The notes beneath the pieces were generated by a model that was not told where the DNA came from, ran no database searches, and saw only the letters and a program-made list of their open reading frames with translations. From NCBI GenBank assembly GCA_963828125.1, contig CAWHDP010000002.1, forward strand, positions 96,001-160,000: a stretch of 64,000 nucleotides of DNA, read 5' to 3'. Origin of the DNA: an uncultured Chlamydiae bacterium. Its GTDB lineage: Bacteria; Chlamydiota; Chlamydiia; Chlamydiales; SM23-39. A program made the translations under genes and the position numbers. This document shows positions 43,935 through 47,631 of this stretch, one piece after another. Each line of letters starts with the position of its first letter. Positions within the stretch are counted from its first letter, which is position 1.

Positions 43935-44966
43935 ATGGCCTCCCTTCACGAGCAGATTGGCGAACTTCGCTCCAAGTTCATGAGTGAGCTGAGGGAGGCC
44001 GTCCATTCGAAGGATCTTGAGAACATCAAATCCAAATATCTGGGCAAGAAGGGGCCCGTTCAGGCGCTGATGCTCTCTTTGAAGAGTTGCAGCCCCGAAG
44101 AGCGGCCTCACTTCGGCAAGCTCGTTAATGACTTGAAGGAGGAGTTGATCGCCCATTGCGACCATAGCCTCGCCCGCGTGAAGCAAGCCGAACTCAACGA
44201 ACGGCTGAAAAGGGAGTGGCTCGATGCGACCCTGCCAGGCAGGCGCACCCGTCAAGGGCGGCTTCACCCGGTCACCCAGGCGATGAATCGGATCATCGAT
44301 ATACTGGTCGGCATGGGATTTTCCGTTCAGCTCGGTCCAGACGTCGATACCGATTATTACAATTTCGAAGGGTTGAATTTTGCCGAGGGCCACCCGGCTC
44401 GCGATATGCAGGACACCTTTTATCTCTCTCCTGATCTCCTCCTCCGGACCCACACGAGCAACGTCCAGGTACACGCCATGGAGAAATACCTCCCTCCGAT
44501 CCGGATCATTGCACCCGGCCGTTGTTTCCGCAATGAGGACATATCGGCCAGATCCCACGTTTTTTTTCATCAGATTGAAGGATTTTACATCGATCGAAAC
44601 GTCACGTTTGCCGATCTATTTTCGACGATGGATGACTTTCTCGGTAAGCTCCTTGGCGAAAAGGTGGAGACCCGCTATCGCCCCTCCTATTTTCCTTTCG
44701 TGGAGCCCGGCCTTGAAGTCGACGTCCGGTGCATTTCGTGCAAAGGGGCTGGCTGCCGGATCTGCAAGCAGACAGGGTGGCTGGAGATTCTCGGCGCAGG
44801 GATGATTCATCCCAACGTTCTGAAGAGAGGCAATATCGATCCAGAGAGCTATTCGGGTTATGCTTGGGGGATGGGGATCGAACGGCTGACGATGCTTTTG
44901 GGCGACATCCGAGACATCCGACTCTTTACGGAGAACGATCTCCGGTTCTTGGAGCAATTTCCTTGA
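43935..44966 (+). CDS. pheS: Phenylalanyl-tRNA synthetase alpha subunit
   Basis: HPARDMQDTF, LLRTHTS, YFPFVEP and GMGIER. Confidence 0.97.
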   Translation: MASLHEQIGELRSKFMSELREAVHSKDLENIKSKYLGKKGPVQALMLSLKSCSPEERPHFGKLVNDLKEELIAHCDHSLARVKQAELNERLKREWLDATLPGRRTRQGRLHPVTQAMNRIIDILVGMGFSVQLGPDVDTDYYNFEGLNFAEGHPARDMQDTFYLSPDLLLRTHTSNVQVHAMEKYLPPIRIIAPGRCFRNEDISARSHVFFHQIEGFYIDRNVTFADLFSTMDDFLGKLLGEKVETRYRPSYFPFVEPGLEVDVRCISCKGAGCRICKQTGWLEILGAGMIHPNVLKRGNIDPESYSGYAWGMGIERLTMLLGDIRDIRLFTENDLRFLEQFP

Positions 44967-45005
44967 TTAAAAAGACTTAAAAGGCGTAAGATCAGTCCTT
45001 CTTTT

Positions 45006-45094
45006 GGAAGAGTGGCAGAGTGGCCGATTGCACCTGTCTTGAAAACAGGAGGCCCTTCCGGGGTCCGTGGGTTCGAATCCTACCTCTTCCGCCA
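45006..45094 (+). tRNA. tRNA-Ser(TGA), CCA encoded
   Basis: GGAAGAG/CTCTTCC acceptor, CCTGT-CTTGAAA-ACAGG anticodon arm, long variable arm, GCCA end. Confidence 0.95.
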
Positions 45095-45099
45095 TTATG

Positions 45100-45160
45100 T
45101 ACCACCATCGGCCAATGACTTGGCTTGGGTTCAAATCCAAGTTGTTGGCCGGTGGTGGTA
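45100..45160. repeat. 61-bp hairpin between tRNA-Ser and the convergent symporter
   Basis: TACCACCATCGGCCAATGACTTGG...CCAAGTTGTTGGCCGGTGGTGGTA. Confidence 0.7.
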
Positions 45161-45182
45161 TAATCCCTTCGAGTCCTGAATC

Positions 45183-46526
45183 TCATTCAGCAAGGCCAGG
45201 ATTTCGATTTTTTACCTTGTCTCTTTGCGTGAACGCTATCCACTCGCCGATGCTATAGCCGGCGAGCGAGAGGAGAATGCTGCCGATTTCCGATGGGGTG
45301 GGCGGGGAGACGAATTTGAAAAGACAAAATCCGGCGATCCCAAAAACCATCGAGAGAATGCCCGAGATAAAATGCCCCTGCTTTTTGAAGAGAGCGGTGA
45401 GGATGGGGATGAGAAGGCAGCTCAGAGAAAGCTCATAACTCTGTATGAGCATCTCTACGACGTTATTGAAAAAGAAGGCGCAAATAATGGCTGCTGCTGA
45501 GAGAGCTGCTGTGAGGATTTGCATCGAGCGGAGGCTTTTTTGTTTGGAGAAAAAATCGCTCGAGAGATTCGAGCTGATGGCGCTGATGAGCGAGGTGGCG
45601 GTTGAGATAACGGCGGCGAGGACAGCGCAGCCGACGATGGCGGTGATCCAGGGATTGGTGAGGGTGGAGACGGCGACCATGAGGACGCTCGCTCCGGGGG
45701 GGATGATGAGGCCAAGGCTCTTGGCGAGGACGCCAAAATAGACCGGAATAATGCAGATCAGCATGGCGAGTATGCCGGCCCAGAAGCTGGCCTTGGAGAC
45801 GGTGCGAGGCGATTCTCCGGCAAAACACCTTTGTCCCATGTCTTGCTCAATGATCATGAAGAGAAGGGGCATGAGGAGCCATCCGGTGTATTTCGATGTG
45901 GCGACGGCATATGATTCGATGGATGCGGGAAATGGGCCGTCGTAGGCGACCCAGCTGAAAGCAAAGAGGAACACGAGGGTAAAGAGGGTGGCTTGGGCCA
46001 TGTCGGTGGCGATGACGGCTTTAAGGCCGCCTCGTACGGTGTAGAGAATGATGCTGGCCCAGACGGCGACAAAGATGGCGTTGCTAGGGACGCCCATGGC
46101 GACTAAGAATTTTTTGGAGGCGATGATTTGGCCGGCTAGAATCATAAACAGGGAGATCACAGAGAGCATGGAGGCGATTTTGCGCAAGAGAGGGGAGCGG
46201 TAGATCACTTCGAGAATCTGGGCGACGGTCGATACTTGAAATTGGGCGAGTTTTCGGCCGAGGCCGAGGCCGAGAAAGATCAGGCCGAGGGCGTTGCCAA
46301 GGGGGTAAAAGAGGATGGCCCAGCCATATTTGTAAGCCTCATCTGCTGCGCCGAGGACGAGTCCTCCTCCTACTTGGGTGGCGAGGAAGGTCATCATGAG
46401 GGGAAAGAAGGTGACGGTTTTGCCGGCTAGGTAGTAATCGTCTTGGGTTTTGATGTTCTTAGAAGAACGTTTACCAATATACCAATAGATCGTTTGAAGA
46501 ATGAGCACTAAAAATATAAATTTCAT
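45183..46526 (-). CDS. Sodium:solute symporter (SSS) family protein
   Basis: DDYYLAGK, LATQVGGG, YTVRGGLKAVIATD, QDMGQR and AAVISTA. Confidence 0.9.
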   Translation of the reverse strand: MKFIFLVLILQTIYWYIGKRSSKNIKTQDDYYLAGKTVTFFPLMMTFLATQVGGGLVLGAADEAYKYGWAILFYPLGNALGLIFLGLGLGRKLAQFQVSTVAQILEVIYRSPLLRKIASMLSVISLFMILAGQIIASKKFLVAMGVPSNAIFVAVWASIILYTVRGGLKAVIATDMAQATLFTLVFLFAFSWVAYDGPFPASIESYAVATSKYTGWLLMPLLFMIIEQDMGQRCFAGESPRTVSKASFWAGILAMLICIIPVYFGVLAKSLGLIIPPGASVLMVAVSTLTNPWITAIVGCAVLAAVISTATSLISAISSNLSSDFFSKQKSLRSMQILTAALSAAAIICAFFFNNVVEMLIQSYELSLSCLLIPILTALFKKQGHFISGILSMVFGIAGFCLFKFVSPPTPSEIGSILLSLAGYSIGEWIAFTQRDKVKNRNPGLAE

Positions 46527-46593
46527 AAAATTCCAAAAATAAAAATTAAAAAAACGCTAACGCGCGAAAAAAATCAGTAAAATGGGGAGAAGA

Positions 46594-46665
46594 TTAATGG
46601 GAATGATGATGGCGGGAACGGGAAAGGGAGCGGGTGGCTGGCGCGTTCAATATTTTCTTAAACAT
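46594..46665 (-). CDS. Putative His-rich leader peptide MFKKILNAPATRSLSRSRHHHSH (23 aa)
   Basis: Hand-translated. SD-like AAGGTAGGT just upstream of ATG 46665. Ends CAT CAT CAT TCC CAT TAA, 67 nt before the symporter start. Confidence 0.6.
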   Translation of the reverse strand: MFKKILNAPATRSLSRSRHHHSH

Positions 46666-46714
46666 AGATACCTACCTTTGTGGCTGATGGGAGCGTACAT
46701 TTATTGAGGATTTA

Positions 46715-46742
46715 AAGATACTGAAAACAAAACCTTTGCCAA
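46715..46742 (-). promoter_or_regulatory. Putative promoter for the leader plus symporter
   Basis: TTGGCA-16 nt-TATCTT on the minus strand. Confidence 0.3.
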
Positions 46743-46781
46743 GATCACGATTGACGATCTCTTGGGTTGATTCTCGTTCGT

Positions 46782-46958
46782 TCAACGTCTTTTGAAGAAC
46801 TGAATTTCCCGCTCGTGCTGAACGGCTGCCGCGCGGGTGGTGAAAGTCCCCAAATTCCTTCTCCGGCCCGTCTTGGGGTTTTTCTTGCGCGAATAGAGGC
46901 GATATCCCCCTGAAGGGAGTTTTCTGATCATGATCATCGCATAACAAAGAGACGTTGA
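46782..46958. repeat. 177-bp MITE-like element with imperfect terminal inverted repeats
   Basis: TCAACGTCTTTTG...CAAAGAGACGTTGA ends with an internal CCCCAA/TTGGGG hairpin. Confidence 0.4.
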
Positions 46959-46962
46959 TTTG

Positions 46963-47631
46963 TCAACCGATCATCTTCCCGTCTTCGAGCCGGACGATCC
47001 GGTCGGCGAAGTGGGCGATGCGAGGATCGTGGGAGACAATGATGAGGGTTTTCTTCCGATCGGTGACGATTTTGCGGAGGAGTTCCATGATTTTAGCGCC
47101 TGTTTCGTGGTCTAAAAAACTGGTCGGCTCATCGCAGACGATGAGGTCGGGGTCGTGGATGAGGGCGCGGGCGATCGCGACCCGTTGCTGCTGGCCGCCC
47201 GAGAGGAGATCGGGGGTGGCGCCGGCTTTTTCTCCGATTCCTAAATCTCGAAGCAGCGCAGCTGCTTTTAGCTCGGCGCTCTTTCGATCCACGCGATTCA
47301 AGAGAAGGGGGATGGCGATGTTTTCAGCGCAGGTGAGCATGGGGACGAGATTGAAGGCTTGGAAGACGAAGCCGATGTGTTGGCTCCGATACCGGGTTTT
47401 TTCGAGATCGGGGAGGCGATTCAAATCTTTTTCTCCGACGAGACATTCTCCGCTTGTTTGCGTTAACATGCCGGCGATGACGGAAATCAGGGTCGTTTTG
47501 CCCGATCCGGAGGGACCCATGATCATCAAAAGTTCGCCGTCTTTAACTTCGAGATCGATGCCGCGGAGGGCGTCCACCCTCGTCGTCCCTTCGCCGAATA
47601 CTTTTGTGACATTCTTGCAGACGACTTTCAT
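46963..47631 (-). CDS. ABC exporter ATP-binding protein (LolD/DevA/MacB-like)
   Basis: GPSGSGKT, LSGGQQQRVAIARA, CDEPT and VSHD. Confidence 0.93.
   Translation of the reverse strand: MKVVCKNVTKVFGEGTTRVDALRGIDLEVKDGELLMIMGPSGSGKTTLISVIAGMLTQTSGECLVGEKDLNRLPDLEKTRYRSQHIGFVFQAFNLVPMLTCAENIAIPLLLNRVDRKSAELKAAALLRDLGIGEKAGATPDLLSGGQQQRVAIARALIHDPDLIVCDEPTSFLDHETGAKIMELLRKIVTDRKKTLIIVSHDPRIAHFADRIVRLEDGKMIG

Follow-up and report, generated by a model that had tools for sequence, protein, structure and literature searches.

A histidine-codon leader peptide before SSS transporter genes of Chlamydiota, a candidate attenuator of histidine supply

Described leader peptides and the chlamydial element

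Attenuators of the hisL kind consist of a short upstream open reading frame (uORF) with a Shine-Dalgarno sequence (SD) and a run of codons for the cognate amino acid, located 5' of the controlled gene. We found these parts upstream of an SSS-family transporter gene in the window, that is, in the whole 64,000-nt stretch of DNA from an uncultured Chlamydiae bacterium that was analysed. As in hisL of E. coli and Salmonella, the uORF is short, carries tandem His codons and precedes genes of His supply, which include the his operons of five chlamydial genomes. The chlamydial leaders differ from hisL in having no Rfam match (the His_leader family has the accession RF00514) and no conserved terminator or antiterminator; they are also longer, end in the His run, show a pyrimidine bias at synonymous sites and stand mostly before importers. 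The device is of a known kind, that of hisL, and the chlamydial leader is a variant on it. Judged by its sequence, the element resembles hisL in its presumed action but lies outside that RNA family, and its anatomy resembles that of Rho attenuators.

Predicted His leaders of Firmicutes were described in the B. cereus group, Peptostreptococcaceae and Erysipelotrichales (PMC9413887) and for the hisS/hisZ paralogues of bacilli (PMC2965389). Comparative genomics likewise served to recognize these leaders, which precede his genes and the genes of the HisXYZ ABC transporter. They differ from the chlamydial ones in possessing terminator and antiterminator hairpins, and it is HisXYZ and YuiF that these papers name as His transporters. 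The terms 'symporter', 'SSS' and 'chlamyd' had no matches in PMC9413887.

The uORF-dependent Rho attenuators cruR-bfrG, tnaC, speFL, mgtL and corL, as presented in PMC12360218, share the logic that we infer for the chlamydial leader, with a stalled ribosome over the rut site. In cruR-bfrG of Bordetella the rut site that the stalled ribosome covers is located within the uORF, and a putative importer is encoded downstream (PMC12360218). The chlamydial signal would differ from the cruR kind in being charged tRNA-His, read through a codon run and not through a ligand-dependent arrest peptide, and the role of Rho is here a predicted one.

Sensing of an amino acid through ribosome stalling on a codon run is known from a chlamydial genome, namely in YtgCR of C. 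trachomatis, whose WWW motif attenuates trpBA. It differs from the present case, since the codons lie inside a long ORF and the effect is exerted in trans via the repressor; the attenuation is Rho-independent, and no validated cis leader peptide is reported for C. trachomatis, according to PMC7755916. The initial annotation had referred to Rho-linked attenuation at Trp codons in Chlamydia. This is right for Trp-codon polarity generally, in which Rho takes part, but not for the attenuation by ytgCR.

Histidine transport by a protein of the same family was reported for CbrA of Pseudomonas, whose SLC5 domain transports L-histidine (PMC7918813 and PMC13022988). In CbrA, as described there, the transporter is fused to a kinase, the pocket is hydrophobic and the Na2 site contains a lysine, whereas the chlamydial SSS protein is stand-alone and keeps polar residues. 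Our literature search, which extended to few subscription journals and to the text of papers but not to genome-wide supplementary lists, gave no description of His leaders or importers of histidine from Chlamydiota; such lists, with Chlamydiae among the genomes, accompany PMC4833913 and PMC2965389.

Chlamydiae obtain most amino acids from the host, and their one worked-out case of amino-acid sensing, that of tryptophan, acts in trans. Some Chlamydia species reportedly require a histidine supplement in culture, and others grow without it. Comparative surveys of attenuators have come from the groups of Gelfand and Lyubetsky.

The leader at the window locus and its conservation

The leader uORF (Table 1) is absent from the annotation. 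Its ATG lies 5 nt 3' of the SD, its last His codon is followed directly by TAA, and a gap of 67 nt separates it from the symporter ATG. The uORF, the SD, the His-rich end and the gap had all been read in this way in the initial annotation. The position of a sigma70-like promoter candidate is compatible with a transcription start approximately 40 nt 5' of the leader ATG. When the 330 nt upstream were shuffled with their dinucleotides preserved, a comparable His uORF arose in 3 of 2000 replicates. Of the 1915 genes called in the genome, 4 had a uORF with at least four His in eight codons, and the window uORF was the sole intergenic one of these with a strong SD.

Table 1. Positions of the features of the leader and transporter locus in the window.
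Feature	Position	Strand	Remarks
Weak candidate sigma70-like promoter, TTGGCA-16-TATCTT	46715..46742	-	consensus match only; 1 found vs 1.6 chance-expected
SD of the leader, AAGGTAGGT	46670..46678	-	anti-SD duplex -8.4 kcal/mol; orthologue leaders median -6.3 vs -0.2 for control ATGs
His leader peptide uORF, 23 codons, MFKKILNAPATRSLSRSRHHHSH	46594..46665	-	same-type uORF at 71/154 orthologues
Candidate Rho loading (rut) site, C-rich, G-poor, weakly structured, overlapping the distal leader	46579..46650	-	32 C, 7 G, 25 YC dimers
Putative regulatory His codons, CAT CAT CAT TCC CAT	46597..46611	-	His run at most 4 codons from the stop in 57/71 leaders
4-bp hairpin GCGC-GTTA-GCGT + U7, possible pause/release site, weaker than a classical terminator would need to be	46548..46565	-	
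SSS/SLC5-family transporter, 447 aa, one His, probable histidine importer	45183..46526	-	PF00474 E 3.5e-22

The surroundings of the locus contain several further elements. A basic 51-aa ORF (46937-46782, minus strand) with no Pfam or NCBIfam match lies just 5' of the leader promoter region. Further upstream, a block of four genes on the minus strand (51142-46963) encodes an ABC exporter, comprising a membrane fusion protein, an outer membrane factor, an FtsX/MacB-like permease and an ATPase; we found no link between this block and the leader. On the other side, a tRNA with anticodon TGA (45006-45091, plus strand) converges on the SSS gene, and a long hairpin between the two (45100-45160) is probably a terminator.

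Of 400 genomes of the phylum, 155 contained SSS relatives; the named records indicate Chlamydiota. From 178 loci we set aside 24 (11 duplicates, 8 rows at the level of paralogues and 5 loci with little upstream sequence), which left 154. A leader was defined as a uORF with at least four His in eight codons within 330 nt upstream. We observed such a uORF at 71 of the 154 loci, which agrees with the expectation, stated beforehand with the initial annotation, that His-rich uORFs would precede orthologues of the symporter. There were none in the controls (antisense 0/154, further upstream 0/44, downstream 0/42) and 0-1 per round in 20 rounds of shuffles. In the same test, runs of N, D, C, Q, E or Y, which like His have two codons each, gave 0-2; other residue runs in the 154 regions numbered 10 for K, 21 for F, 32 for I and 41 for S. 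The leaders are about 18-44 codons long, with the His run at the extreme end, and are spread over 18 of 26 family labels. In a FastTree tree, which is rough and has no support values, leader-bearing rows appeared in most clades. The His-rich 23-codon uORF is real, and it is part of a phylum-wide element.

Could the tract be something other than a histidine gauge? It might have arisen by chance or from a (CAT)n repeat that acts as RNA, and His-rich peptides can sense metal. The codon choice in distal leaders (332 CAT, 51 CAC) and the Ile and Ser runs as which the tract also reads would fit a repeat. On the other hand, the stop follows the His run within four codons in 57 of 71 leaders when the His frame is read, compared with 7 and 5 for the two alternative frames, a difference set in part by the ORF definition. 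An SD of -4.5 kcal/mol or better precedes 58 of 71 leaders against 14% of 577 control ATGs, with the best start picked per leader. The five his biosynthesis operons behind such leaders and the low His content of the controlled proteins, both described below, also speak for a frame that is read as histidine. We consider an explanation by repeats or metal sensing highly improbable.

At 7 of the remaining 83 loci a leader was located further up, and in 4 of these 7 it precedes an intervening co-oriented gene or operon. The other 76 of the 154 loci had no leader at threshold in the examined DNA; at least 1400 nt of upstream DNA was available for only 18 of the 83 loci lacking a proximal leader. 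One family (f19, L115-L148) has a leader at only 2 of its 19 orthologues. The nearest relative with a leader (L002) has 70% protein identity. The metagenome scan returned no relative above 61% identity. Profile HMMs of the leader DNA and peptide were dropped, because the left-out window leader was missed by both (E 16 and rank 8 for DNA; outside the top 15 matches for the peptide).

In genus g58 (L158-L178) a uORF is kept at 18 of 18 loci, approximately 80-200 nt 5' of the SSS gene, with only 1-4 His and the motif S-L-S-F-(R/H)-(Y/H)-S-G-(R/H/C)-Y-L-H. Its pN was 0.077 and its pS 0.516 (12 codons, 17 loci), values that are motif-anchored and partly circular. The R and Y codons of the motif are one step from CAT. 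Five of the 24 scored genomes of this genus gave no SSS match.

Chlamydia pneumoniae has an orthologue that is annotated as 'proline permease' (AAD18626, AAP98435); it has 37% identity to the window protein, and the L158 protein is identical to it. It is designated CPn0486 (PMC5723314). Its transcription start was mapped at 567946, 210 nt 5' of the ATG of the 444-aa form (supplement table of PMC3333780). The leader ATG of L158 lies 183 nt 5' of the transporter ATG; consequently the leader would be located inside the measured 5' UTR, approximately 27 nt past the start, provided that there is no indel. The C. pneumoniae leader is eroded and has three His codons.

Genes behind the leader and the probable substrate

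We found hisD in 6 of the 400 genomes, and 5 of these have a full operon with the order purH-hisG-hisD-hisC-hisB-hisH-hisF-hisA (L187-L191). A leader of the same design precedes all five complete chlamydial his operons. It is through these operons that the leader, like hisL, is tied to the supply of its cognate amino acid; the substrate of the transporters we infer. None of the five genomes is among the SSS orthologue matches.

The leader was also present at 24 of the best 30 loci of HisJ/ArtJ-like ABC binding proteins (family 3, LAO/HisJ/ArtJ group) and before three TyrP-like permeases (L189, L299 and L300). Both kinds of target were reached with the pattern Y6(CAY)4, which is unspecific (205 matches in 401 genomes). 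Among 90 matches examined, 6 were leader-like with a gene behind them, in each case for an amino-acid transporter, 2 were leader-like with no gene in the DNA examined, and the rest were non-leaders. At the DNA level, the leader of one his operon shares 69-86% identity with those of five ABC loci. A leader lineage beginning with MKQ... is common to his operons and ABC binding-protein genes (L188:12420-12570, L187, L191, L328, L333, L335); in six related leaders of this lineage a 13-bp hairpin begins 5 nt past the stop.

SSS and ABC proteins occurred together in 10 of 400 genomes, while 27 were expected (Fisher p = 1.7e-6, an overstated value, as kin are not independent). The sets comprised 151 SSS genomes, four paralogue-level rows having been dropped, and 72 genomes with the ABC subfamily at E < ~1e-65. 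Such rarity in the same genome is as expected if the two are alternative importers.

The His content of the transporters was low. It amounted to 0.19% in 68 leader-bearing SSS orthologues, 35 of which have no His at all, and to 0.38% in 79 orthologues with no leader. The median for membrane proteins was 1.7% (47 hydrophobic proteins of the genome), and the window SSS protein was the lowest of the 47. The depletion is sixfold (ratio 0.17), while the ratios of all other residues were 0.64-1.46. The ABC binding proteins had 0.12% His, in a set with four mis-called starts. A protein that is nearly His-free can be made during His starvation. hisS and rho are present in the window genome (95% complete), and we did not find hisD or hisG in it.

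Since the leader is common to his genes and two other transporter types, it most likely induces His supply under shortage and marks the SSS protein as a His importer. The link to histidine that the initial annotation had drawn thus gains from the his operons, the ABC binding-protein loci and the His depletion. On this basis we are highly confident that the leader senses His, and with good confidence we regard the SSS gene as encoding a probable histidine importer.

The family assignment of the window transporter is clear (PF00474, 79.3 bits with a cut-off of 22.8), and no NCBIfam model scored above its curated cut-off. We rejected the equivalogs PutP for proline (TIGR02121, 37.4 with a cut-off of 515.5) and PanF for pantothenate (TIGR02119, 50.9 with a cut-off of 328). 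The predicted structure (pLDDT 95) has the SSS fold, with a TM-score of approximately 0.8 to CHT1 and SGLT2. The nearest solved structures, with only 16-20% identity, belong to transporters of choline and of sugars, so the fold is uninformative on His. Choline was rejected too: the tryptophan cage for choline of CHT1/SLC5A7 is absent (ATWV reads ATQV and IPWQ reads IEQD in the profile alignment). The conserved Q51 and E227-Q228-D229 replace the choline-type tryptophans, and the polar residues kept in the chlamydial protein are Q51, E63, E227, Q228, D229, Q232 and E365. The ESM Atlas and a representative search returned generic SSS names only.

The leader could sense His and the transporter still carry a His-related compound (D-His, a His dipeptide or histidinol) or basic amino acids broadly. 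This would suit several genomes with the order leader, Asp/Glu-racemase-family gene, gene for a TyrRS/CDPS-like protein, SSS gene and, in some, M15 dipeptidase gene, and in such operons the SSS protein could have another substrate. The alternative ABC protein is moreover closest to the chlamydial ArtJ, an Arg binder, and the orthologues are currently annotated as proline or pantothenate permeases. However, most leader-bearing SSS genes, including that of the window, directly follow the leader (71/154), and the PutP and PanF scores given above do not agree with those annotations. Histidinol would be of no use to a His auxotroph lacking hisD, which is so rare in the phylum. We find a His-related or broader substrate unlikely, and a histidine importer is our preferred reading. 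Also for CPn0486 the evidence from sequence points to histidine and not to proline as the substrate.

The racemase operon is recurrent and contains, beside the SSS gene, an Asp/Glu-racemase-family gene and a gene for a protein of approximately 300 aa that belongs to no Pfam family; some copies also have an M15 dipeptidase gene (L058:2355-5344, L057:819-3858, L041:162-3477, L065:488-3786, L028:505-2841, L055:3346-5684). A His leader stands ahead of it in L058, L028 and L055. The approximately 300-aa protein (122 homologues) has a fold like that of class Ic synthetases or cyclodipeptide synthases (best Z 8.1, rmsd 4.4, 184 aligned), and TyrRS ties. At L192:5049-11646, genes for a TyrP-like permease, a HisS-like, a degenerate HisD-like and a HisS/HisZ-like protein lie beside a racemase-family gene.

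Transporters of three unrelated subfamilies are at present annotated as carriers of proline, arginine or tyrosine; the leader suggests a likely substrate for them.

RNA of the distal leader and the proposed mechanism

The mRNA around the His run is C-rich and G-poor, as the initial annotation had it. The C-G excess of the 72-nt stretch (Table 1) was equalled by 52 of 65,734 windows of the genome (top 0.08%), and its predicted fold reaches only -3.8 kcal/mol. In the 71 orthologue leaders the last 45 nt had 30-37% C and 6-7% G; the values were 32% and 7% in ABC leaders and 35% and 4% in his-operon leaders. At fourfold third positions, pyrimidines made up 85% in the distal leader; the proximal leader had 59% and the SSS genes had 57%. 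Of 181 serine codons, 147 were TCY, and distal-leader purines were below the codon-usage expectation in 66 of 71 leaders. A C-rich, G-poor, unstructured stretch within reach of a stalled ribosome, together with rho in the genome, is the anatomy of a Rho attenuator.

We did not observe any conserved intrinsic terminator. A hairpin followed by U residues at -10 kcal/mol was found in 3 of 71 spacers and in 4 of 142 shuffles, and many of the 71 spacers had no such element at all. At -7 kcal/mol there was a mild excess (16/71 spacers, 11/142 shuffles), so weak elements are possible. In the window, the sole hairpin 5' of a U-run has 4 bp (-4.6 to -5.1 kcal/mol) and the terminator scan called none in the leader, in accordance with the earlier statement that a strong classical terminator is lacking. 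Rfam gave no relevant match in 44900-47200 of the window down to E 10 and none at gathering score in the five his-operon loci. The pairing of AACGCG with CGCGTT, noted at the outset, was found in the minimum-energy fold (AACGCGC at 46647-46641 with GCGCGTT); it was not seen in L002 (by eye), and the fold was no better than shuffles (z 0.67).

These data bear on classical attenuation of the hisL type, in which weak, lineage-specific intrinsic terminators and antiterminators, here AACGCGC:GCGCGTT and the 4-bp hairpin with U7, would decide the outcome. The mild excess at -7 kcal/mol, the long-range pairing in the window and the 13-bp hairpin after the stop in six related leaders would favour it, and the excess and the conserved clade hairpin imply that structure may matter. 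The scarcity of elements at -10 kcal/mol, the z value, the negative terminator scan and the lack of Rfam matches argue against it, and the clade hairpin has one-sided changes only, with no two-sided compensatory change. Moreover, the RNA freed just 3' of a His-stalled ribosome consists of U and C only and cannot pair with the hairpin. We judge hisL-type attenuation to be quite unlikely. The weak hairpins before U-runs (that of the window and the 13-bp hairpin of the clade) may instead serve as pause or release sites.

The C-rich stretch fits equally well an anti-SD that would pair with the ribosome binding site (RBS) of the transporter unless covered by a stalled ribosome; control would then be translational, and Rho would act secondarily, on untranslated mRNA. 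Cognate leader:RBS duplexes had a mean of -8.26 kcal/mol compared with -7.40 for non-cognate ones (1 of 10,000 permutations). The signal was carried by a subset: 16-18 of 71 leaders were in the best tenth and only 37-39 beat the median, and perfect matches of 7-8 bp were present in L050, L006, L075, L097 and L150. A block at the stall footprint lowered the cost of RBS opening by at least 2 kcal/mol in 24 of 71 leaders, while a control block placed in the spacer did so in 5 of 67; this control is lenient, because a purine-rich RBS will pair with any block rich in pyrimidines. However, permutation within families was not significant (1972/10,000, n = 50), and the 24 ABC leaders had no cognate RBS pairing signal (-6.03 and -5.98; 4309/10,000). 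At the window locus the pair was weak (-4.8) and RBS opening cost 1.8 kcal/mol either way. We consider translational control as the main output unlikely. Termination by Rho and pairing with the RBS are not mutually exclusive, and the latter may operate in some lineages.

We lean, on the whole, towards reading the leader as a ribosome-based gauge of charged tRNA-His with a Rho-type output, and the SSS protein as the His importer of a His-auxotrophic bacterium. We are only slightly inclined to see Rho termination, blocked by the stalled ribosome, as the main output. The leader would be translated, as its SD strength and conservation suggest. When His is plentiful, the ribosome would pass the His codons and be released, by the established logic of leader peptides, and the C-rich, G-poor RNA of the distal leader would be exposed. 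Rho would then load on this RNA and transcription would end in the U-rich spacer, which is the least certain step. When His is scarce, the ribosome would stall on the His run and cover the Rho site, and polymerase would read into the transporter gene, whose almost His-free product, a property of its sequence, could be made under His starvation. In some lineages, pairing of the pyrimidine-rich stretch with the transporter RBS may add translational control. In this case the same nucleotides would serve both as sensing codons and as the presumed site of Rho loading. The leader is a short, portable sequence and is testable in E. coli.

Tentatively, and as the less secure extension of this reading, we propose a phylum-wide His regulon of Chlamydiota on one portable, largely structure-free attenuator, in which terminal His codons with Ser, Phe, Leu and Pro codons would be both tRNA-His sensor and Rho loading site. 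The attenuator would have moved between SSS, HisJ/ArtJ-like ABC and TyrP-like permease genes and the his operon, and it would mark a stand-alone SSS subfamily, including the C. pneumoniae 'proline permease', as His importers. It would have become, in the genus that comprises the chlamydiae of humans and animals, a conserved peptide (RYSGRYLH, one to four His) that may act as an arrest sequence.

A contig of higher depth from an RNA run (X7, L103) ends inside the leader; it was not taken as evidence, because contig depth cannot rank parts of a gene. We also observed, on contig C2 of the same genome as the window, a Leu-rich uORF with an SD, MPLDRGNLLDLNSLLQNRTSS, 5' of 667826 (plus strand). It is a candidate Leu leader located 110 nt before a gene whose start, compared by eye, we take to resemble that of leuC.
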